Origin: a bacterium
GTDB lineage: Bacteria > Armatimonadota > Fimbriimonadia > Fimbriimonadales > Fimbriimonadaceae
Assembly (NCBI GenBank): GCA_027485645.1
Contig: JAIXQR010000001.1
Coordinates: 363,632 to 427,631, forward strand
Direction of reading: 5' to 3'
DNA length: 64,000 bases
In this document: one piece after another, positions 38,042-61,447 of the stretch
Layout of the letters: each line of letters starts with the position of its first letter
Position numbering within the stretch: the first letter of the stretch is position 1
Notes under the pieces: generated by a model
What the model was told of the DNA's origin: nothing
The model's input: only the letters and a program-made list of their open reading frames with translations
The model's database searches: none
Program-made: the position numbers and the translations under genes

Positions 38042-39307
38042 TTATTGAGTCGTCGCCTTGGCGACGACGGTTGGCGTGTTGATGCTGAACTCTTTGCCGT
38101 CGATGCGATACCGGACTTCGGCAAAGACCGCGACGTTCTCGCTTGGCATGAGATCCTTTCTAGGCTCAAAAGTAGCCGAGGAGGCACCCGGTTCGAGCAT
38201 CGTCGGCCGCGCACGGTAGACGCGCTGTCGGAAGTCGGTGTTGACGCTTACCGCGGTCCAGAACTTCAGTCCAACAACGTCCTTTGGTTCAAACCGAACG
38301 GTGTAAGCATCTTTGCGGAGGTCGTAGGTTCCGGACGGGTTGACCGGAAGGGTCTTGCCCTTCGCAATGGCTCGCGCCATAGCGCTGACGGCCTCCACGG
38401 CTTGAACCTTGTTGCCGAGGCTGTGCCCGGCGTTTGGCATCGTGACGAGCCACTTGGGCTGCTTCAGCTCCTTCCAGTAAATGCTGGTGGCATCTGCCGC
38501 CCAATAGGCGTCGTTCGCTCCGTTCACGATCATCGTTGGCACCTTGATGTTGCCTCGATACTCGAACGGGTCGACCATCTTCTGCAACACCTGACCATCC
38601 TTCGTAGCAAGCTTCTGTTGAAGTCCGCGACGGGTGTAGTCCTCAATCTGCTCACTGTAGGCACCCCAGTGTTCGAGCTGGTGGGCCATTTGAGGAGTGA
38701 AGTTCAAGTTGTCAAAAACGAGTGGAGCGATGCCAACAACTCGCTTGTCCCGGGTTGCGGCGGTGAGCCAGGTCGTCCAGCCGCGCTTGCTGGCCCCAGT
38801 TACGATGAACTTCGTCACCGGATGCCCAGTTCTCGCGGAAAAGTCTTGGATCGCGTCCATGGCTTTGATCGCCGATTTTGTCATCGGGAAGAGCAAAGGC
38901 CAAGTCGGGTCCTTCGTTTCTAAATACTTATTGAAGGTGTGAGCAATCAGATCGTCTTCTTTCATGTCCCAAAGAGGCTGATTTGGGATGTTGAAGAGCA
39001 TATAAACGGGGAGCTGAGTTGCGCCAGAGATCAGCCCGAGGTCAATGTTGTCTCCCGGTCGAGGTCCATCGCCCGTGATAAAGAGAATCGCCGTGTCGGT
39101 TGGCATATCTTTCGAGCCAGCCTGGTACAGCACGTTGTGCTTCCAGGTGGTTCCTTGCCAGACTTGGGAGGTGACTTCGAGTTGCGTGCGCGGACCAGAC
39201 GAGTCCACGACACGATACGCATAAGCGGGTTCAGGCCGTTGAATATACGCCTCAAGGGGCGACATCGCGGGCGCAAAGAGTGCAAGTGTCACGCATGAAC
39301 TCAGCAT
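38042..39307 (-). CDS. PhoPQ-activated pathogenicity-related (PqaA) family alpha/beta hydrolase
   Basis: 'EDDLIAHT', 'PMTKSA', 'GASKRGWTTW', 'VDPFEY', 'GANDAYW', 'PNAGH'. Start 39307 supported by TACAAT 8 nt upstream. Confidence 0.88.
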   Translation of the reverse strand: MLSSCVTLALFAPAMSPLEAYIQRPEPAYAYRVVDSSGPRTQLEVTSQVWQGTTWKHNVLYQAGSKDMPTDTAILFITGDGPRPGDNIDLGLISGATQLPVYMLFNIPNQPLWDMKEDDLIAHTFNKYLETKDPTWPLLFPMTKSAIKAMDAIQDFSARTGHPVTKFIVTGASKRGWTTWLTAATRDKRVVGIAPLVFDNLNFTPQMAHQLEHWGAYSEQIEDYTRRGLQQKLATKDGQVLQKMVDPFEYRGNIKVPTMIVNGANDAYWAADATSIYWKELKQPKWLVTMPNAGHSLGNKVQAVEAVSAMARAIAKGKTLPVNPSGTYDLRKDAYTVRFEPKDVVGLKFWTAVSVNTDFRQRVYRARPTMLEPGASSATFEPRKDLMPSENVAVFAEVRYRIDGKEFSINTPTVVAKATTQ

Positions 39308-43835: not shown

Positions 43836-44411
43836 ATGGCAACGATGAGAGTTTTGATTGCGGACGACGATCCGATTATTCGTTTGGATCTTCGTCAAAT
43901 GCTGGAAAGCCTCGGCTATGAAGTCGTGGCGGAAGGCGGCGACGGAAAGCAGGCAGTAGATCTGGCCCGCGAGACCCAGCCTGATGTGTGCATCCTCGAC
44001 GTGAAGATGCCCGTGATGGACGGAATCGAAGCCGTCAGCATTATCACCGAAGAGAATATCGCGCCGACGATTCTTCTAACTGCTTACTCCGACAAGGAAC
44101 TGGTTGACCGAGCCAAGGATGCGGGCGTGTTCGCCTACCTCGTGAAGCCGTTCAAGCCAAGTGACCTGCCTCCGAGCATCGAAGTCGCACGCAGCCGATT
44201 TGAGCAAAACCAGCAGCTTAATGGCGAAGTCTCGAACCTTCAGGAAAAGCTTGAAGCGCGAAAGCTGATTGATCGCGCCAAGGGAATTCTGATGGACGAG
44301 TACAAGGTCGGCGAGTCCGAAGCGTACCGACGCATCCAGATGCAGAGCATGAACCTGCGAAAGTCAATGCGAGAAGTTGCCGAGGCGATCATCCTCGCAA
44401 AATCGATCTGA
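43836..44411 (+). CDS. REC-ANTAR response regulator (PdtaR/EutV-like)
   Basis: Receiver 'ADDD...ILDVKMP...LTAY...KP'; ANTAR 'RKLIDRAKGILM......EAYRRIQ..SM..RKSMREVAE'. Confidence 0.95.
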   Translation: MATMRVLIADDDPIIRLDLRQMLESLGYEVVAEGGDGKQAVDLARETQPDVCILDVKMPVMDGIEAVSIITEENIAPTILLTAYSDKELVDRAKDAGVFAYLVKPFKPSDLPPSIEVARSRFEQNQQLNGEVSNLQEKLEARKLIDRAKGILMDEYKVGESEAYRRIQMQSMNLRKSMREVAEAIILAKSI

Positions 44412-52060: not shown

Positions 52061-53905
52061 ATGGCCAGACGATCCTTGAACGAAACCGTGAACGAGCGGC
52101 TGGAAAAGCTGCCGGCCACCCCTGGCTGCTACATCTACAAGGATGAGAAGGGAGCCGTGCTGTACGTGGGCAAGGCGATCTCCCTCAAGAATCGGGTTCG
52201 AAGCTACTTCCAGGCTTCCGCCAAACATGGCCCGCGCATCGCGCGATTAGTTGGCAAAGTTCGCGATATCGAGTGGATCGTTGTTGATACCGAGCTGGAG
52301 GCGCTCGTGCTTGAGTGCAACCTCATCAAGCAGTACCGACCTCCGTACAACGTCCGCCTTCGCGATGACAAATCGTATCCATATGTTGCCATCACGAACG
52401 AAGCCTATCCACGATTGATCTTCACCCGGAAGGTGCGCAAGGACGGCGCGAAGTACTTCGGACCGTTTACGAGTGCGTTCGCGGTTCGAGACACGATCCA
52501 ACTGCTCCACAAGATCTTCCCGTTGATCCCTTGCGGAAAGAGCTGGACCGGGGCAGATGTGCAAAAGCCGTGTCTCTACTTCCACCTCGGGAGATGTCTT
52601 GCTCCGTGTGCGGGCAAGAGCGACAAAGCCGAATACGGAAAGATTCTCGACAAAGTCGAGCGGTTCCTCCAAGGCAAAGAGGAGAGCATCGTGGCCGACT
52701 TGACCGCCGAGATGGAAAAGGCGGCGGAGAATTTGGACTTTGAGAAAGCTGCCGGCATCCGAGACCAAATTCTCGCGATCGAAAAGGTCCTCCAGCGCCA
52801 AAAGGTGCTCAGTACGGATGCGGTGGACCAAGACGTAATTGCCGTGGTGAAGGACGAGCGTGGCGCCGCGATCCAGATGCTCTATATCCGTGGTGGAAAG
52901 CTCATCGGTCAGCGACAGTACATGCTCGATGGCGCGATGGAAGTGCCGCCCGCCGAGGCGGTCCAGGAGTTTGTCAAGCAGTACTATGCCGACGCGCCGG
53001 AGATCCCACGCGAGGTTCTGCTTCCACTTGAGATCGAAGAACGCAACATCGTCCAGACCTGGCTGCGCCAAAAGCGCGGCTCAACCATGACGGTTGAAGT
53101 GCCGCAGACCGGGGAAAAGGCACGCTTGGTTGATCTCGCAGCCGCAAATGCGGAACAGGCACTCAACCAGTTTTCGCAGGAGATGGCCAAGAAGGAAGCG
53201 TGGATGGAAGAAGCGCTGGCACAACTTCAGGAAGCCCTCAACCTGCCCACCTTGCCGTCCCGCATCGAGGGTTACGACATTTCCAACATTCAGGGCACCG
53301 CGCCGGTGGGGAGCATGGTCGTGACCGAGAATGGCGAGCCGGCAAAGGCGGAGTACCGCCGGTTCAAGATCAAATGGCTGCCTGAAGCCCCGAACGATTT
53401 CGCGATGATGAACGAAGTCTTGATGCGGCGGCTCCGCGCCTATACCGACGGCGATGAGAAGTTCGCAAAACTGCCCGATTTGATTCTCATCGATGGTGGA
53501 AAGCCGCAGCTTAGCGCCGCCCTCAAGGCGCGAGACGAATTTTCCATGACCGTCCCCATGGTCGGCTTGGCCAAGCGGCATGAACTGCTTTACATGCTGG
53601 ATGAGACCGGGTTCCGAGAGATCGAATTACCCCTCAACTCTCCAGGTTTGATGCTGCTACGCCGACTTCGAGACGAGGCTCACCGGTTCGCCTTGAGCTT
53701 CCACCGAAAGATTCGGGACAAGCGAATGGGGGGATCAGCCCTCGAAGAGATTCCTGGCGTTGGCCCTCGGCGACGCCGGTTGCTCTTGCGAACATTTGGC
53801 TCGATTGATGCCATCCGGCGAGCGACCATTGAGGACCTCGCTTCCGTGCCCACGATGACCCACGCCTTGGCCACAAAAGTTAAGGATTATCTTCAAGAAG
53901 CCTAA
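52061..53905 (+). CDS. uvrC: Excinuclease ABC subunit C
   Basis: GIY-YIG 'PGCY...YVGKA.SL..RVRSYF', 'IEGYDISN', 'LILIDGG..QL', 'RDEAHRFA', HhH 'IPGVGP.RR'. Confidence 0.98.
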   Translation: MARRSLNETVNERLEKLPATPGCYIYKDEKGAVLYVGKAISLKNRVRSYFQASAKHGPRIARLVGKVRDIEWIVVDTELEALVLECNLIKQYRPPYNVRLRDDKSYPYVAITNEAYPRLIFTRKVRKDGAKYFGPFTSAFAVRDTIQLLHKIFPLIPCGKSWTGADVQKPCLYFHLGRCLAPCAGKSDKAEYGKILDKVERFLQGKEESIVADLTAEMEKAAENLDFEKAAGIRDQILAIEKVLQRQKVLSTDAVDQDVIAVVKDERGAAIQMLYIRGGKLIGQRQYMLDGAMEVPPAEAVQEFVKQYYADAPEIPREVLLPLEIEERNIVQTWLRQKRGSTMTVEVPQTGEKARLVDLAAANAEQALNQFSQEMAKKEAWMEEALAQLQEALNLPTLPSRIEGYDISNIQGTAPVGSMVVTENGEPAKAEYRRFKIKWLPEAPNDFAMMNEVLMRRLRAYTDGDEKFAKLPDLILIDGGKPQLSAALKARDEFSMTVPMVGLAKRHELLYMLDETGFREIELPLNSPGLMLLRRLRDEAHRFALSFHRKIRDKRMGGSALEEIPGVGPRRRRLLLRTFGSIDAIRRATIEDLASVPTMTHALATKVKDYLQEA

Positions 53906-53953
53906 CAAAGATTTCGTACCTCGGGGCCAAAACTTGCTGTAATATGTGCGAGC

Positions 53954-53990
53954 CTCGGCAACGGTGACGAGCGGATTCCCAACGACGGGA
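53954..53990 (+). ncRNA. Candidate ANTAR-binding dual stem-loop in the gltB 5' leader
   Basis: P1 CTCGGC-[AACGGT]-GACGAG, 5-nt linker, P2 TCCC-[AACGAC]-GGGA; both loops are 6 nt with A1, G4 and a C-G closing pair. Confidence 0.65.
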
Positions 53991-54004
53991 CGTTCTGAGC
54001 CTCA

Positions 54005-57000
54005 ATGTTTCAAGTTATTCGTCACGGACGCCCTCATCTCGAAGCCGACGCTTGCGGCATCGGATTTCTTGCAAGTCGGAAAGGAGTTGCCGACCGCGCG
54101 GTAGTTGAAAACGCCCTCGAACTCTGCCGCCAATTCGACCACCGTGGTGCGCCGGGACACGGAGCGGGTGTGCAATTGGATATCCCGTGGCCCCTGCTGC
54201 TTGATCGTTTTCCGGACCATGCGAAGCTCATTGCGCAGCAAGACCTTGCGCTGGGCATGTTCTTCCTTCCGTTGGAGCCGACGGACCGACGTCGCTGCAC
54301 TGCGATCGTAGAGGAACTTGCGCACCTTGCCGGGTCGGAGGTTCTGCAGTGGGCAGAAGTGCCGATCAATCCGGATGCATTGCCCGAAGGCAGCTCCGCC
54401 CGCATGACGATGCCGAAGGTTAGACAGGCGATCTTCCGGCGACCCGAGGGAATGAGTGAAGACGGTTGGTTTGCTTGTCGGTACTTGCTACGTCTCGCCA
54501 TAGATGAGGAGGCAAACAAGATGTATGGCGACAACTTTGCCATCGTCAGTCTTTCGAACCGAACGGTTGTATATAAGGGCCTCGCCGAACTATCAAAAAT
54601 CGGCGACCTTTATCCCGACCTCCAAGACCCGCATTTCCGCTCTCGGTACGTTCTTTTCCACAGCCGGTACTGCACGAACACCACCACCGCATGGCGTCGC
54701 GCTCAGCCGTTCTGGGCCCTTGCGCACAACGGAGAAATCTCGACGATCCAAGGCAACGTCGCGTGGATGCAGGCCATCGGCCGCGACTTGATCGCCAACT
54801 TGGTCGAACAATTCCCGTCGATTCAAAAGCTGGCCAGCCGCATCACGAGCGTCGTGTGTCCGGGTGGCTCGGATACGGCAAATCTGGATGACATGCTCAT
54901 CGCCCTGCTCGCCGGAGGCATGAACGTTCCGCAGGCGATTTTGGCCCTGTTGCCGCAGGCCACCAGCACCCTGCCGGACGCGTCGCCGCTTAGGAAGTTT
55001 AACGAGGCAATGGAAGTGTTCCTCGGTGCCTGCGACGGTCCGGCGGCGATTGTCGCTTGCGATGGTGACGACGCGGTGGCCCACCTCGACCGAAACGGCC
55101 TCCGCCCGCTTTGGATGACCGTCACGAAGGACTTTGCCTTTGCAAGCAGCGAGCCAACAGGCACGTTCCCTCTTGGGCCGTTCCAGTCTCAGCGCATCAT
55201 GGGTCCCGGCGAAACCATGCTCGTCCACCTTGCCGATGGCGCGATTCTGACGAACGAGCAGGTTCACGACGAAGTTGGCCGCAAGGACTATCCTCGACTG
55301 CCGCAAGATGTTGTTCCGCTCTCGACCGTCGAGGCGCTGCCCGAATTTGGAGACCTCACTCGGCTCCAAAGAGCGTTTGGCATGGGGAAAGAAGACATTG
55401 ACGTCGTTCTGACTCCGCTGCTCAAGACGGGCAAGCCCGCCGTTGGCTCCATGGGAGACGACACGTCGCCGGCCGCCATGCTGGACCAGTATCCTCGGCG
55501 CATTGAGGACTACTTCGCGCTTCGGTTTGCGCAAGAAACGAGCCCGCCCATTGACCCGATTCGCGACGCCTGGGTGTTCGATTCAAGCGCTTCGATCGGG
55601 AATCGATCCGGGTTGTTCGGCGGAGAAGAAGGACTCGTCTATCGATCCGAGCATCGAGTGATCTCGCTGGGCGAATGTGCTTGGCTTTCGGCCCAGCAAA
55701 GCGTGACCGTGATTGACGCGACCTTTGAGGCTGCTTCCGGCGCAGAGGGGCTCGAAGTAAGGCTTTCTGAGTTGGTGGCCGAGGCGACGGCGATTGAATC
55801 CACCGTTCTCGTTTTGAGCGACCGAAAAGTAGATGCCGATCGCGTTGCGGTGCCGATGCTTCGCCTCGTATCGCGGCTTCACGAAGCCCTGATTCGAGAA
55901 AATCGGCGTCACCGGGTCGGTCTCGTCGCGGATGCCGGGGTTTGGGATATTCATCACTGCGCCCTCCTCGTGAGCGTCGGCGCAGACGTGGTGTGTCCTT
56001 GGCTCGGAGCGGCTTCGGCGGGAGAGGAGGAATACAACTTCCTCAAGGGAATCCGTTCTGGCTTCATTGAGGCGATGTCGATGATGGGCGTTACGCCTTC
56101 TTCGGCATATTGCGGTGCCCGGCTCATTGAGGCCATCGGGCTCGACAAAGCATTCCTCGCCCAAGAGTTTCCGAACGTGCCCGGGCACCTTGAGGGCATC
56201 GCGGTGGAGACCCTCAACGAGGAATGGCTTCAGTTCCACCAGGAAGCCTTCGTTGAAGAATGCACGTTGCCCGACTTTGGCGAGTACCGGCACACCAAGT
56301 CCGGACGGGCGCACGCGAACAACGCCGACATTGTCCGAAATCTCCAATCCGCCACCGGATATTCAAAGAAGATCCACGAAGGAAAGCCAGGAACCTATGA
56401 GGCGTACCAGACCTACGCAAAGCTGGTCACCGATCGATCCCCGATCACCCTTCTGGACTGCCTTCATTTGAAGCCAGGAACTCCGATTCCGATCGAGGAA
56501 GTGGAGTCCGAGCTTTCGATCGCATGGCGATTCATGGCTCCCGGCATGAGCGAAGGCGCCTTGAGCTCGCCCGCGCACATGGCGGTTGCCAGCGGTCTCA
56601 ACCTCCTGCGGCGCTATATCTCGGTATTCGAGAAGTCAGCGACCCTTAGCGGCATCGGGCCGATTGCGAATAGTGGCGAAGGCGGATTTGAGAAGGAGCG
56701 CATTGGAACCCGGTTTGGCAATCGCAGCGTGCAGTACTCCGGCGGTCGGTTCACGATCACCCCTTGGACGGCGGCGACCGCCTTAGAAGCCGAAGTCAAG
56801 TTCGCTCAGGGGGCAAAGCCAGGTAAGGGCGGTCAGCTTCCGGGCAAAAAGGTGTCTGTTCAAGTGGCACGGCAGCGCGGTTGCGAGCCCGGGTACGAGC
56901 TCATCAGCCCGCCGATCAACCACAACCTGTACTCCATCGAGGACGTGAAGCTGATGATTGAGAGCTGGCGTCACCTCAACCCGAGCGTGAACTGTGCCCT

Positions 57001-58432
57001 CAAGTTTGTCGCTACCCACGGCATCGAAATGGTCGTGATGGGTGGTGTAAATGCCGGTGCAAACCGATTGCACATCAGCGACGGCTGCGGAGGCACCGGG
57101 GCCGCCAAGCGAGTTGACCAAAAGCATGCCGGCATTCCCGTGGCAGCGGTTCTGCCAAACGTTCACGAAACGTTGCTGGAAGAAGGGGTTCGCCACCTAG
57201 TCGAAATCAGCGTTGACGGTGGCGTGCAGAATGGCGAGCAAGCGCTGAAGTTGATGCACCTTGGGGCGGACCGCGTTGGGATCGGCACGAGTTTGCTCAT
57301 TGCCGTTGGCTGCTCGATGCTTCGAAAGTGCCACCTTGCGGGACCAGACCCGGCGGATCCGACCGGTAAGCGGCGGCTCGGCTGCGCGCCGGGAGTTGCG
57401 ACGCAGGATCCGGCATTGGTAGCCAAGTTCCAGGGCAAAGGCAAGCACGTCGCGCGGTACCTGCTGTTCATGGCCCGAGAAGTTCGCGAACTCATGGCGG
57501 CAAACGGCATTCGAAGCCTGAGCGAGATCATCGGACGACGTGATCGACTAGAGTCGAAACCCTCGCTGTGCGGAAAGTCGGCCCAACTTGACTTCGGTGT
57601 ACTCCTGGCCCCTCCGATCTCTCGGGAAAGCCAACGGGACTACGCCCTTCAATCCTCGATGCACGCTCCAACGTTGCGAGCCGAAGAGATTGCTGCGGCA
57701 GAGGCGGCTCTGCGCGGAGAGAGCCAATTGCTCACCGAGAAGCTGACCAACATCGATCGCTGTGTCGGCATCGCGGCGGCTGGTTACATTGCGCGGGCGA
57801 AAGGTGACCTTGGGTTGACGGCAGGGAAGGTTTCAATGAACCACACCGGTGCGGCCGGGCATTACTACGGCGCTTACCTCGTCAATGGAATGGACCTGCG
57901 GTTGACCGGCTCGGTTGCCGATTCGGCGTTCACCGCCGCCTATGGTGGGACCCTCGTGGTTCGACAGCCGGAGGGGCAGACTGGCTTGACCGTTGTCGGA
58001 AACGCGTTCGGGTACGGCGCACGCGGCGGCACCGCCTTCATCGCCGGCAGAGCCGGAAATCGGTTCGGCGTGTGTTTCAGAAAGAACCCGGAAGGAGGAG
58101 GTCCCACGGTGGTCGTGGAAGGCGTTGAATCGAACGCGTTCCAGTACATGACGGGTGGCGTAGCGTTGGTTCTCGGGCCAACCGGGTTCAACTTGGGGGC
58201 CGGAATGACGGGCGGAAAGGTGTATCTGATGGACGGCGATCTTTCGACTTTGAACCCGGACTACGTTCACGCCGTCGCCCTGGAGGAATCAGATCTTCAG
58301 TTGGTGACTGAGTTGATTCAGAGACATGCAGACGAAACTGGCAGCAAAGTTGCCGTTCAGGCTTTGAAGAATGTTTCCCCACAGCATTTCGTGAAAGTGG
58401 TCACTAAACTGCTGCCCGAGTCGCTCGAGTGA
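54005..58432 (+). CDS. gltB: Glutamate synthase large subunit (divergent; no gltD adjacent)
   Basis: Propeptide then 'CGIGF'; 'HNGEI', 'SMGDD', 'QGAKPG.GGQLPG', 'YSIED', 'GGTGA', GXGXG C-terminal domain 'YMTGG'. Confidence 0.93.
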   Translation: MFQVIRHGRPHLEADACGIGFLASRKGVADRAVVENALELCRQFDHRGAPGHGAGVQLDIPWPLLLDRFPDHAKLIAQQDLALGMFFLPLEPTDRRRCTAIVEELAHLAGSEVLQWAEVPINPDALPEGSSARMTMPKVRQAIFRRPEGMSEDGWFACRYLLRLAIDEEANKMYGDNFAIVSLSNRTVVYKGLAELSKIGDLYPDLQDPHFRSRYVLFHSRYCTNTTTAWRRAQPFWALAHNGEISTIQGNVAWMQAIGRDLIANLVEQFPSIQKLASRITSVVCPGGSDTANLDDMLIALLAGGMNVPQAILALLPQATSTLPDASPLRKFNEAMEVFLGACDGPAAIVACDGDDAVAHLDRNGLRPLWMTVTKDFAFASSEPTGTFPLGPFQSQRIMGPGETMLVHLADGAILTNEQVHDEVGRKDYPRLPQDVVPLSTVEALPEFGDLTRLQRAFGMGKEDIDVVLTPLLKTGKPAVGSMGDDTSPAAMLDQYPRRIEDYFALRFAQETSPPIDPIRDAWVFDSSASIGNRSGLFGGEEGLVYRSEHRVISLGECAWLSAQQSVTVIDATFEAASGAEGLEVRLSELVAEATAIESTVLVLSDRKVDADRVAVPMLRLVSRLHEALIRENRRHRVGLVADAGVWDIHHCALLVSVGADVVCPWLGAASAGEEEYNFLKGIRSGFIEAMSMMGVTPSSAYCGARLIEAIGLDKAFLAQEFPNVPGHLEGIAVETLNEEWLQFHQEAFVEECTLPDFGEYRHTKSGRAHANNADIVRNLQSATGYSKKIHEGKPGTYEAYQTYAKLVTDRSPITLLDCLHLKPGTPIPIEEVESELSIAWRFMAPGMSEGALSSPAHMAVASGLNLLRRYISVFEKSATLSGIGPIANSGEGGFEKERIGTRFGNRSVQYSGGRFTITPWTAATALEAEVKFAQGAKPGKGGQLPGKKVSVQVARQRGCEPGYELISPPINHNLYSIEDVKLMIESWRHLNPSVNCALKFVATHGIEMVVMGGVNAGANRLHISDGCGGTGAAKRVDQKHAGIPVAAVLPNVHETLLEEGVRHLVEISVDGGVQNGEQALKLMHLGADRVGIGTSLLIAVGCSMLRKCHLAGPDPADPTGKRRLGCAPGVATQDPALVAKFQGKGKHVARYLLFMAREVRELMAANGIRSLSEIIGRRDRLESKPSLCGKSAQLDFGVLLAPPISRESQRDYALQSSMHAPTLRAEEIAAAEAALRGESQLLTEKLTNIDRCVGIAAAGYIARAKGDLGLTAGKVSMNHTGAAGHYYGAYLVNGMDLRLTGSVADSAFTAAYGGTLVVRQPEGQTGLTVVGNAFGYGARGGTAFIAGRAGNRFGVCFRKNPEGGGPTVVVEGVESNAFQYMTGGVALVLGPTGFNLGAGMTGGKVYLMDGDLSTLNPDYVHAVALEESDLQLVTELIQRHADETGSKVAVQALKNVSPQHFVKVVTKLLPESLE

Positions 58433-58525: not shown

Positions 58526-61447
58526 GTGTTGCGCGCTTTTCTTTCGGCATTTTGCTCTTTGTCTTTGTTTGCCACGGCCTGCATTTCAAGTGGTCAAGCG
58601 GTTCGTCCGACGCAAACCGGTAGCTTGTCCGACATTTCCGACCGCCTAGCGCGTAGCTTTGAGCCCACAGGAGCAGGGTTCGCCGCGCGACAGCCAGATC
58701 GGTTCTCGGCAGAAATCTCAGCCACAGGCGCCCTCAAATTAACCGCGAATGCTGCCAGCCTGGCCATTCGAACGGTGGCTTACGGGAGCGGAGCAAATCG
58801 CGTTGCCACAAGCGCACCGCAACTTGGTCGCGGCGTAGACGACGCAGGTTGGCCACGTCTGAACCTTGCGCGGCCGAACTTCAACGAGTGGTTCGTTAAT
58901 GAGCGAGCCGGAATGCACCACTGGATGCAGGTTCAAAGCAAGCCTGGGATTGGACAAAACCTCTGGGTCAAGCTCGCAGTCAGTGGCGCCACCGGGCTTC
59001 AACAGATAGACGAGGAGACGGTAGAGCTCAAAACCGCAACCGCCAAGTTCTCTTATGCCGGACTTTCCGTTTGGGACGCAAACGGCACGATGCTTCCTGC
59101 ACACATTGAGACCGCCAACGATGCAATGTATGTCGTGGTCGATGACCAGAACGCGCAGTATCCCGTCACCATCGACCCGGTTTGGACTCAGCAGACGAAG
59201 CTCATCGCGAGCGATGGCGCAAACAGCGACCAGTTTGGATTCAGCGTGAGCGTTTCTGGCGACCTCGCCGTAATTGGCGCGCCCTACGCGAACGTGACCG
59301 GAAACGATCTTGGCGCAGCCTATGTCTTTCGACGCACCGGAGTCTCGTGGACCCAAGAAGCCAAGCTCTCAGCCTCGGACGGCGCGAACGGCGACTACTT
59401 CGGTTACAGTGTGGGCATCTCCGGCAGCACGGTGGTTGTGGGAGCTTACGGCGATGCTGGTGGCTCCGCCTACGTCTTCGTGAGAAATGGCACAAGCTGG
59501 TCCCAGCAGCAAAAGCTGGTCGGTAGCGGCCTCGGTTCATCCGACCAGTTCGGATCGGCAGTTGCTATTTCTGGAAACTCGATTGTTGTCGGCGCGCGAA
59601 ACGCCGACCCGGGTGGATCGAACCGTGGAGCCGGATTTGTCTTTGTCCGAAACGGTAGCACCTGGACCCAAGAAGCCCGCCTTCTCGCAAGTGACGCTCG
59701 GAATTCCGACCAGCTTGGCTACAGCGTCGGAATCTCGGGAGACCGCGTCGTGCTCGGAGCATACGGGGCAGATGCCGGAGCATCGAACGGAGGCGCGGCC
59801 TACGTGTACGAGCGATCCGGTTCAACCTGGACCCAGGTTCTCAAATTTGTTGCGCCCGACGCCGGAATTAACGATCGCCTCGGCTTTAGCTCTTCGATTT
59901 CGGGAGACACTTTCATCACCGGTGCGCGATTCGCCGATGCCGGCGGAACCGACCGTGGCGCGGCTTATGTGGTCTCGAAGGCCACCGGCTCCTGGGTAAT
60001 GCAAGCGAAACTGACTGCAAGTAGTGCAACGAACGGCGACAACTTCGGCTTTGCTGTAAGCATCTCTGGCGACCTTGCTTTGGTCGGTGCTTTCAGCTCC
60101 GACATTGGCGGCTCAAACCGTGGTGCGGCTTACTCGTACACTCGAACTGCGGGAACCTGGGGATCTGAATCTCTGATCCTAGGTGCCGATAATGCCAACG
60201 GGAACCAGTTTGGTTGCAGCGTCAGCATCGACGGTGAGACCGCCTTGGTTGGCGCTCGCCTTGCCGATCCAGGTGGTTCAAATCGCGGCGCGGCTTACAC
60301 GTTTGCCGTTTACCGAACCATGGCGATTAGCTTTGCAAACCAAGGCGTCACTACCGGCAAGGTTGCTACCGGCACCGTCACAATCAGCAGTGTATCGGCG
60401 ACCGATACCGTCATCAGCCTTGCAAGCAGCACCCCGGCCCTCACATTGCCCAGCACGGTGACCGTTCCCGCGGGTTCCACTTCCGCCACCTTCACCGCTA
60501 CTGCTGGAAGCGTCAACTCGGATACGACCGCGACCATCACCGGTTCGGCGACCGCGTTCACTTCCGGTACAGGCTCGATCTTTGTTCGAATTCCTCGCGT
60601 AGGCGCGATCTCGTTTGACCGCGCTCAAGTCGAAACCGGACAAACTGCGCTGGCAACGATTGCCCTGCAGTCCCCGGCTCCAGCCGGAGGCATAACGGTC
60701 AACTTGGATAACTCCATCCCGGCGGCCCTTGCTTGCCCAGCCACGGTTATCGTTCCGGCAGGCGCAACTCGCGTGTCGGTGACGGTCACGGGACAACTCG
60801 TGCCCGCCGACATGACGGCCAAGGTGACCGCAACGCCAACCTTCAGCGAAAAGTCCGCGACGATCTTGGTTAAGCACGGTGCGGTTCTGAGCACCTTCAC
60901 CTTGCAAGACGCCAGCATCTCGACGTACGGAAGCACGATCGGATCACTCTCGCTGACCGCCCCAGCGCCTGCTGGGGGCGTTTCGATTGCCCTGAGCGCA
61001 AACTCCAACCGATTGACCCTTCCGGCCACGGTGACGGTGCCTGAAGGCGAAACGTCCGCCACCTTCGTGCTGGAGAGCGGTGCGCTTCCTCATCCGTCGA
61101 TCGTGGTCCAAGCCGCAGGAAGTGGCGTCACCCGCACTGCCTCCGTAGCGATCATCCGAAGCTCGATTGCCACGGTGACGGCGCCAGAAACCGTTGTCGC
61201 CGGGAATTCGGTTGTCATGACGGTTACGCTGTCTGGGGTCGCGCCGGCGAGTGGCGTCACGGTTATGCTGAACTCAGATGCTCAGTCGGTCGTCACGATG
61301 CCAGCGTCGGTTGTCATTCCGGCCGGAGAGAGTTCAGCTCAGGTAACGGTAAGCACGAATGCCGGTAAGCGCGGGCGGATCAACTTGTATGCATGCCTGC
61401 GTGGCCAGGGCACCAAGAGCGCCCGGGTCGAAGTCACCGAGAACTAA
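58526..61447 (+). CDS. Secreted FG-GAP (7-blade propeller) protein with four C-terminal Ig-like repeats
   Basis: Seven 'W.Q..KL.A.D....D.FG.SV.ISG....VGA.....G...GAAY' repeats; four 'PAPAGG..V.L.S.....P..V..PAG..SA' repeats. Confidence 0.88.
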   Translation: MLRAFLSAFCSLSLFATACISSGQAVRPTQTGSLSDISDRLARSFEPTGAGFAARQPDRFSAEISATGALKLTANAASLAIRTVAYGSGANRVATSAPQLGRGVDDAGWPRLNLARPNFNEWFVNERAGMHHWMQVQSKPGIGQNLWVKLAVSGATGLQQIDEETVELKTATAKFSYAGLSVWDANGTMLPAHIETANDAMYVVVDDQNAQYPVTIDPVWTQQTKLIASDGANSDQFGFSVSVSGDLAVIGAPYANVTGNDLGAAYVFRRTGVSWTQEAKLSASDGANGDYFGYSVGISGSTVVVGAYGDAGGSAYVFVRNGTSWSQQQKLVGSGLGSSDQFGSAVAISGNSIVVGARNADPGGSNRGAGFVFVRNGSTWTQEARLLASDARNSDQLGYSVGISGDRVVLGAYGADAGASNGGAAYVYERSGSTWTQVLKFVAPDAGINDRLGFSSSISGDTFITGARFADAGGTDRGAAYVVSKATGSWVMQAKLTASSATNGDNFGFAVSISGDLALVGAFSSDIGGSNRGAAYSYTRTAGTWGSESLILGADNANGNQFGCSVSIDGETALVGARLADPGGSNRGAAYTFAVYRTMAISFANQGVTTGKVATGTVTISSVSATDTVISLASSTPALTLPSTVTVPAGSTSATFTATAGSVNSDTTATITGSATAFTSGTGSIFVRIPRVGAISFDRAQVETGQTALATIALQSPAPAGGITVNLDNSIPAALACPATVIVPAGATRVSVTVTGQLVPADMTAKVTATPTFSEKSATILVKHGAVLSTFTLQDASISTYGSTIGSLSLTAPAPAGGVSIALSANSNRLTLPATVTVPEGETSATFVLESGALPHPSIVVQAAGSGVTRTASVAIIRSSIATVTAPETVVAGNSVVMTVTLSGVAPASGVTVMLNSDAQSVVTMPASVVIPAGESSAQVTVSTNAGKRGRINLYACLRGQGTKSARVEVTEN

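Follow-up and report, generated by a model that had tools for sequence, protein, structure and literature searches.

The 64-kb stretch of DNA analysed here (the window, G000:C3:363632-427631) belongs to a 3.19-Mb genome (G000) of the Fimbriimonadaceae, phylum Armatimonadota. Between the end of uvrC at position 53905 and the start of gltB at 54005 it holds a leader with two small adjacent hairpins, P1 and P2 (Table 1). Comparison with related leaders indicates that the hairpins are a conserved RNA structure and that the 3' half of P1 has a second, covarying partner in the start region of gltB; the leader is probably a target of a regulator carrying the RNA-binding ANTAR domain.

Table 1. Features of the gltB leader, its gene and the candidate regulator (window coordinates).
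Feature	Position	Strand	Details
-10-like box TAATAT (predicted promoter)	53940-53945	+	from sequence; almost every orthologous leader has TAnnnT at this distance from P1
P1 hairpin CUCGGC-AACGGU-GACGAG	53954-53971	+	loop 53960-53965, A1/G4; five pairs plus a G58.A67 mismatch
Alternative helix, 5' strand GUGACGAG	53964-53971	+	last two P1 loop bases and P1 3' arm; excludes P1
P2 hairpin UCCC-AACGAC-GGGA	53977-53990	+	loop 53981-53986, A1/G4; four pairs
Weak Shine-Dalgarno-like GAG	53997-53999	+	5 nt 5' of ATG; aligns with GGAGG, AAGG or GAGG of orthologues
Alternative helix, 3' strand UUCGUCAC	54018-54025	+	gltB codons 5-7; predicted fold of leader plus first codons
gltB, glutamate synthase large subunit	54005-58432	+	1475 aa; Pfam GATase_2, Glu_syn_central, Glu_synthase, GXGXG
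REC-ANTAR response regulator, PdtaR/EutV type	43836-44411	+	candidate trans-acting partner; PF00072 E 7e-29, PF03861 E 7.5e-22

All four domains of a glutamate synthase large subunit were found in the gltB product. Its match to the corresponding NCBIfam model (E 5.6e-268, 892 bits) lies below the curated equivalog cut-off of 1047 bits, which suggests that this GltB represents a divergent subfamily. The gene stands alone: there is no adjacent gltD, and the next gene (58526-61447) encodes a protein of 973 amino acids (aa) with seven FG-GAP repeats.

An earlier note on this DNA had placed P1 and P2 where Table 1 has them, 5 nucleotides (nt) apart, with one G.A mismatch, 6-nt A1/G4 loops and C-G closing pairs, and in all of this the sequence bears it out; the mismatch sits beside the P1 closing pair. 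P2 is found in every predicted fold of the window leader, can be extended (GGAU 53973-53976 pairs with GUUC 53992-53995 in predicted folds) and ends 14 nt 5' of the gltB ATG. The TAATAT hexamer reported before P1 is likewise present, and transcription of gltB would start some 6-8 nt past it, at roughly 53951-53953; upstream of this box no match to a -35 element passed a consensus scan. In many gltB leaders TTGnYG abuts TAnnnT upstream of the -10 box (53934-53945 in the window, and in orthologues; e.g. TTGCTGTAATAT, TTGGCGTATAGT), an arrangement that may be an extended -10-like promoter type of the lineage. A terminator-site scan found no intrinsic terminator between P2 and the ATG, and no Rfam 15 covariance model matched positions 53500-54500 at E up to 10, or seven orthologous loci at E up to 1. 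The 3' end of the 16S rRNA (...GAUCACCUCCUUA) carries the canonical anti-Shine-Dalgarno sequence (CCUCC). The GGGA of the P2 3' arm had been taken for the sole Shine-Dalgarno-like run and for the ribosome-binding site: a GAG lies nearer the start, GGGA ends 14 nt before the ATG, and about 30 orthologues place their Shine-Dalgarno sequence downstream of P2, so that this role for GGGA is ruled out.

gltB leaders were taken from 18 genomes of the same genus and from 45 named loci; dropping duplicates and nine Acidobacteriota loci left 39 distinct Fimbriimonadaceae leaders. The earlier note had staked its reading on the presence of the motif in orthologous leaders, and it is kept in about 33 of the 39 (GltB 61-99% identical), in the same layout and with fixed spacing. 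A TAnnnT box is followed after 6-9 nt by an extended P1, often of the form CCGG..GGY-loop-GCC..CCGG; across a short linker comes P2, and then a Shine-Dalgarno sequence (GGAGG, AAGG or GAGG) 5-9 nt 5' of the start. The two loops lie 13-20 nt apart (30 leaders), and the P2 loop is mostly 22-32 nt from the start (16 in L018). Among the genomes with the motif is G024, of 5.2 Mb in a single contig. Six leaders are divergent or degenerate (L016, L017, L024, L056, L058 and L060).

Within the loops the positions differ in their freedom to vary. Position 4 is G in both loops of all 29 curated leaders, a figure that is partly ascertained because leaders were picked for the curated set by eye, for having G4 in their loops. 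When leaders are aligned after trimming by the ATG alone, the G4 of the first loop is nonetheless at least 90% conserved, and the A and T of the -10 box are invariant columns. In the same 29 leaders position 1 is A in 21 and G in eight for P1, and A in 16, T in seven, G in four and C in two for P2; position 2 is mostly A, and positions 3, 5 and 6 vary freely. The P1 loop is 6 nt long in 30 of 30 curated leaders. The P1 closing pair is U.G in 12 of the 29 and A.C in none, so that the conserved object is the plus-strand RNA and not a DNA palindrome.

Pairing is kept while sequence changes. When the 3' arms of P1 were exchanged between species the energy rose from -8.3 kcal/mol (matched) to -6.1 kcal/mol (mismatched), and for P2 from -6.6 to -3.7 kcal/mol; none of 5000 permutations did as well in either case. 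In a MAFFT alignment of 13 leaders 76.7% of the cells are paired, where shuffles reach 59% and slid partners 35-47%, and 11 of the 14 stem pairs have changes on both sides; for P2 96% of cells are paired and three of the four pairs covary. RNAalifold, with no structure supplied, recovered both hairpins on two MAFFT subsets. On this comparative evidence P1 and P2 are a genuine conserved RNA structure. Compensatory changes around an invariant A1/G4 had been proposed as a check on the motif: the stems do covary and G4 is constant, while position 1 varies.

The P1/P2 motif is missing from the short leaders of gltB homologues (~70% identity) from Acidobacteriota/Vicinamibacteria, and thus is not simply carried along with gltB.

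Those Acidobacteriota/Vicinamibacteria loci, from metagenome-assembled genomes (L036, L040, L043, L047, L049-L051, L062 and L064), are of interest in their own right. Their gltB N-termini are 64-70% identical to those of Fimbriimonadaceae, which makes them as close as many Fimbriimonadaceae are to one another, and their short leaders are unrelated, with a promoter of the type TTGACC-N17-TATTCT. The close N-termini and unrelated leaders together suggest that gltB moved between phyla without its regulatory leader.

The published hallmarks of an ANTAR-target RNA are two stems, each with 3 bp or more, separated by a linker of 2-25 nt and capped by hexaloops that have A at position 1 and G at position 4 (PMC3369931, PMC8164766). 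The window leader has stems of five pairs plus one G.A mismatch and of four pairs (covarying in relatives), the loops AACGGU and AACGAC, and a linker of 5 nt; the hexaloop rule, which tolerates one point variation, holds in the window and is relaxed across the family, where P2 loops reach 7-8 nt. The genome gives a single match to PF03861 (79.5 bits), in an ANTAR gene that lies within the window 10 kb upstream of gltB. The 14 control genomes, a panel listed in other searches with E. coli among them, gave no PF03861 match. This sole ANTAR protein has the architecture of the PdtaR/EutV type – a receiver followed by a C-terminal ANTAR domain – and over residues 3-186 it resembles 1S8N (Rv1626/PdtaR; E 9e-57) and 6WSH (EutV; E 3e-46) in the PDB. 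Residues that contact RNA are retained: a tyrosine aligns with EutV Tyr164, which stacks on the flipped-out loop base G4 (PMC8934654), and K/R residues align with K143/K147 (positions counted along the alignment, allowing for chain numbering shifted by 2 residues). All 41 relatives searched have an ANTAR gene, even where this gltB is absent, and the regulator is thus expected to have other targets.

The genome also has a single HisKA_2 histidine kinase (G000:C1:557293-558885, + strand; positions 499-2091 of locus L114), a cytoplasmic protein of 530 aa with the domain order GAF-GAF-HisKA_2-HATPase; the nearest PDB structure for its GAF domain is the nitrogen-sensing GAF domain of PtsP (EI-Ntr), 3TRC. 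As with pdtaS and pdtaR, the kinase and regulator genes are unlinked. This kinase could be the PdtaS-like partner of the orphan REC-ANTAR regulator, and might sense nitrogen.

By the criteria of sequence and structure, then, the gltB leader is classed as an ANTAR target. ANTAR recognition is the best reading of the two hairpins, the binding itself being putative, and that the leader is an ANTAR target, in whatever mode, we hold to be reasonably probable. To this extent the interpretation of the earlier note stands, upheld by the conserved RNA and the single REC-ANTAR gene; what does not stand is its output arrangement through GGGA, in place of which the 3' half of P1 appears to compete for the start region.

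That competition is visible in the predicted folds. The minimum-free-energy fold of the window leader lacks P1; when the first codons are included, the helix GUGACGAG:UUCGUCAC encloses P2, the Shine-Dalgarno-like GAG and the AUG, and the fold has an energy of -21.0 kcal/mol, against -14.5 kcal/mol with P1 and P2 enforced. In most relatives the P1 3' half pairs with the Shine-Dalgarno/pre-AUG region and not with codons 5-7 (GGUGCC:GGCACC; GCCACCG:CGGUGGC; GCCUU:AAGGC vs GCCUA:UAGGC), and here too the partners covary: across species, matched combinations give -11.5 and mismatched ones -8.3 kcal/mol (0/5000 permutations), while the controls, the P1 5' arm and P2 each against the pre-AUG region, are not significant across the family. 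Of 29 leaders, 24 lack P1 in the predicted equilibrium ensemble, and over the 29 the best P1-containing fold is on average 5.9 kcal/mol less stable than the minimum-free-energy fold. P2 forms in both predicted states. Enforcing P1 raises the unpaired probability of positions -14 to +3 from 0.37 to 0.49 (up in 18 leaders, down in none). P1 is self-stable in five leaders (L028, L042, L044, L048 and L063), and in three of these, a small subclade (L028, L042 and L044), it is the P2 3' side that pairs with the pre-AUG region.

In one orthologue, L006 (G011), the alternative helix CCACC...GGUGG encloses P2 and is followed by U7 right before the AUG, so that the switch could there work as an intrinsic terminator; among the leaders inspected by eye, this is the only one with a U-run past the alternative helix.

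The earlier note had thought control at the level of translation probable, no terminator following the hairpins, and translation is indeed the likeliest mode, given that the motif is kept in orthologous leaders and that no terminator was found. Moreover, since the P1 3' half pairs with the start region, stabilising P1 should open the start, which predicts translational activation. Neither arrangement known from other ANTAR targets was seen: P2 does not overlap the 5' arm of a terminator, as it does in the antitermination class, and the motif does not overlap the ribosome-binding site or start codon, as in the translational repression published for mycobacteria (PMC8164766, PMC12591593), its link to the start region being indirect, via the P1 3' half. 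Both kinds of overlap were looked for, and the output arrangement fits neither described class.

According to our hypothesis, gltB mRNA would begin a few bases before P1, and its leader of ~55 nt would be a protein-responsive switch. In the protein-free state the P1 3' half would lie on the initiation region (codons 5-7 in G000; the Shine-Dalgarno/pre-AUG region in most relatives), with P2 held inside the long-range helix and the start region partly closed. A phosphorylated dimer of the sole REC-ANTAR regulator would bind the R-A-Y-G-N-N hexaloops of P1 and P2, stabilise P1, break the sequestering helix and so raise translation of glutamate synthase: a translational counterpart of ANTAR antitermination, by anti-sequestration. 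ANTAR-activated translation of gltB by this switch is, on our model, an evenly balanced proposition.

Hairpins of similar kind precede two further genes of nitrogen assimilation. In G000 the amtB leader has the hairpin UUCCCC-AAAGGC-GUGGAA (G000:C6:493819-493836, - strand), 6 nt past a TATAAT box and 14 nt before the ATG, and its 5' arm is complementary to the AGGAGGA Shine-Dalgarno sequence. Throughout the genus the amtB leaders carry an RNNGNN hexaloop hairpin right after the -10 box, with covarying stems in nine distinct versions, and several have two such hairpins (G003, G009 and G019/G010/G012). The glnA leader has UCGUUCGGC-AGUGUA-GGCGAGCGG (G000:C1:143831-143854, - strand) after a GATAAT box; the hairpin is kept in 11 members of the genus (loops AACGGC, AGCGUC, AAUGUC and others), and in three genomes of a sister family glnA has GUCGGC-AAYGNN-GCCGCC. 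G4 and R1 are kept in all the amtB and glnA hexaloops, and the EutV-RNA structure indicates that a single hexaloop is the minimal ANTAR site (PMC8934654). These leader sequences suggest that amtB and glnA form one nitrogen-assimilation regulon with gltB, perhaps driven by the GAF-GAF HisKA_2 kinase. Neither by eye nor by hairpin scan was a motif seen in the leader of the ANTAR gene itself or in those of the two P-II genes.

A wider reading, which we put forward as possible and consider doubtful, makes the PdtaS/PdtaR-like pair the nitrogen master regulator of the Fimbriimonadaceae, and perhaps of the whole order: acting not on transcription, it would bind single or dual hexaloops at the 5' ends of glnA, gltB and amtB, pull the anti-Shine-Dalgarno strand into the hairpin and thereby activate translation. 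If this is true, translation would for the first time be seen to be activated by an ANTAR protein, and control of the NtrC, GlnR or NtcA type would have a replacement at the RNA level.

A number of observations weigh against the switch, its ANTAR ligand or the regulon. In the window sequence alone P1 and P2 are not above chance: the fold of a 125-nt leader segment has an energy of -32.8 kcal/mol, with a z of +0.24 relative to shuffles (-33.6 +/- 3.5 kcal/mol). A strict search pattern for two ANNGNN hexaloops, with 4 or more consecutive pairs and a linker of at most 8 nt, which the window P1 itself fails because of its mismatch, occurs 112 times in the genome, about twice per 64 kb, and 97, 104 and 127 times in three shuffles. 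Both results being null, the case for the hairpins rests on comparison. The P1 of G000 is the weakest of the family (-3.9 kcal/mol, with the mismatch by the closing pair), and RNAalifold gave no consensus on all 30 leaders together, because bulges and 7-nt loops shift the register. The loops depart from the ideal: apart from the selection by eye behind the G4 count, about 12 of 30 orthologues have a P2 loop of 7-8 nt instead of 6, and position 1 is not always A. As to function, the gain in accessibility is modest and comes from thermodynamic prediction alone, the known translational ANTAR cases repress and do not activate (PMC12591593), and with ANTAR in 41 of 41 relatives co-occurrence cannot test the link between protein and motif.

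The regulon meets difficulties of the same kind. At glnA there is a single conserved hexaloop hairpin whose stem hardly varies. A loose signature, a -10 box plus an R..G.. hexaloop hairpin, precedes 107 of 1597 candidate genes in G000 (6.7%), so that an amtB hairpin known from G000 only would be weak evidence, and so high a background in loose hairpin scans leaves no regulon definable from one genome. A regulon search of G000 with a covariance model built from 13 seed leaders (R1) gave gltB as its sole leader match: the other four matches (17-27 bits) and a weaker one in the window (38369-38425) all lie inside coding sequence. R1 was not used to map the distribution of the motif, since leaders of the 'CCGG-NN-GGY' kind score poorly (17-20 bits) and several are missed.

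Alternatives to the proposed switch differ in how much of it they retain. The leader could be an ANTAR target working in another mode: translational repression, by an occluded start or a closed fold, or an effect on mRNA stability, or Rho-dependent termination. Wherever ANTAR control of translation has been documented it represses (PMC12591593, PMC8164766), the regulator resembles Rv1626/PdtaR most closely, and the switch logic is not uniform, given the five leaders with a self-stable P1 and the three among them that use the P2 3' side; in G011, moreover, the T7 run past the alternative helix looks like a terminator. Yet the motif, ending 14 nt before the AUG, overlaps neither the Shine-Dalgarno sequence nor the start, what competes with P1, and covaries, is the start region – in keeping with a start that opens on binding – and the window leader has no terminator, the U-run being confined to one orthologue and seen by eye. 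We regard another ANTAR mode as unlikely.

Alternatively, the structured switch may be real and its ligand something else: a small RNA, a different RNA-binding protein or, as in a riboswitch, a metabolite (glutamine or 2-oxoglutarate, for example). This we think rather improbable. Short covarying stems topped by conserved loop bases are the mark of hairpins that proteins bind, and the A1/G4 hexaloop is an ANTAR-specific feature (PMC3369931, PMC8934654), while some 40 nt of simple hairpins, with no conserved internal loop or junction, offer little room for a ligand pocket; the Rfam families that gave no match at E up to 10 include the glutamine riboswitches. On the other side, the structure and its alternative pairing are conserved without a physical tie to an ANTAR protein, ANTAR is so ubiquitous in the order that its co-occurrence carries no information, and P2 loops of 7-8 nt and a position 1 other than A depart from the canonical motif. 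As for one particular protein, CsrA binding requires GGA, which is often wanting in the gltB leader loops.

It is also conceivable, if quite improbable, that no dedicated regulator exists and the hairpins act constitutively at the 5' end, stabilising the mRNA or fixing its rate of translation. Stem-loops at a 5' terminus protect mRNA against decay, those of gltB lie at the very 5' end of the predicted transcripts, and a comparable hairpin follows a -10-like box at the 6.7% of candidate genes mentioned above. A protective stem, however, needs neither an invariant G4/R1 nor a second hairpin under the same loop rule, and a constitutive structure needs no covarying alternative pairing with the start region; nor would it account for the recurrence of the signature at amtB and glnA, core genes of nitrogen assimilation. 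That the inverted repeats serve as DNA operators, bound by a transcription factor immediately past the promoter, is barely credible: although they start 6-9 bp past the -10 box, a typical repressor position, and sequence itself is conserved in the outer CCGG...CCGG of P1 and in the glnA stem, the U.G closing pairs (12 of 29, a mismatch in DNA, with no A.C), the bulges and asymmetric internal loops in the stems, the change of stem sequences with pairing kept, and the lack of any half-site common to gltB, amtB and glnA, which share only hairpin shape and loop rule, all speak for RNA.

The proposed ANTAR-controlled gltB switch has points in common with several known systems. Like the dual-hexaloop targets of EutV/EutW in the eut operon of Enterococcus faecalis (Ramesh et al. 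2012, PMC3369931; Walshe et al. 2022, PMC8934654), it has two adjacent short stem-loops with 6-nt A1/G4 loops and a short linker, a REC-ANTAR partner that keeps the G4-stacking tyrosine, and a hairpin whose stabilisation excludes an alternative helix. In eut, however, P2 overlaps the 5' arm of a terminator and the output is antitermination, whereas the gltB leader has no terminator, its element sits at the predicted 5' end of the mRNA, P1 competes with the helix that closes the translation start, and the P2 loops of relatives are often 7 nt long. With the mycobacterial and actinobacterial targets bound by Rv1626/PdtaR (Mehta & Ramesh 2021, PMC8164766; bioRxiv 10.1101/660928; review PMC12591593) the likeness lies in the regulator, of which PdtaR (1S8N) is the closest solved homologue over the full length, in the unlinked kinase and regulator genes, and in control – predicted here – of translation and not of termination. 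There the motif overlaps the ribosome-binding site or start, binding represses, and the targets are lipid and redox genes; here it ends 14 nt upstream of the AUG, binding is predicted to open the start and thus to activate, and the targets would be genes of nitrogen assimilation.

Association of ANTAR motifs with such genes is not itself new. Motifs have been predicted upstream of genes for glutamate synthase, glutamine synthetase and ammonium transporters in Desulfotomaculum and other bacteria (PMC3369931), the same gene class in the same regulon-like use within one genome; those predictions had passed a filter that required an overlapping terminator and are mostly from Firmicutes and Proteobacteria, whereas gltB here has no terminator. 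NasR/NasT and AmiR are nitrogen-linked ANTAR antiterminators (PMC3369931; for NasT also PMC10783516) and, as we infer for the present regulator, act positively on nitrogen metabolism through leader hairpins; they differ in using a NIT sensor or the AmiC partner and antitermination, in place of a REC domain, a possible GAF kinase and a probably translational output. The earlier note, which knew of no ANTAR control of glutamate synthase in this lineage, thus overstated the novelty in so far as the Desulfotomaculum predictions precede it; the lineage and the output arrangement are undescribed in the literature searched, where no paper coupling ANTAR with Armatimonadota was found. For ANTAR targets this would be a new lineage and, probably, a new output variant.

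Armatimonadota are widespread and barely studied. If the regulon is real, glutamine synthetase, glutamate synthase and AmtB share control at the RNA level by one ANTAR response regulator; if the switch is real, translational activation by anti-sequestration joins antitermination and translational repression as a third ANTAR output mode. The ~30 natural variants of this compact switch of ~40 nt could also widen search models for ANTAR targets beyond matches that are linked to a terminator or overlap a ribosome-binding site. Should the ANTAR reading fail, what remains is still a well-supported new conserved structure in the gltB leader.

Elsewhere in the genome a further promoter with a hairpin, GTGTACGATAGT..GAGCAUG-ACGGCA-UGUUU, is repeated on the - strand of G000:C1 at about 698,070-701,810. 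The GTGTACGATAGT element precedes several clustered small paralogous open reading frames of 124-190 aa, which look like a family of co-regulated small genes.

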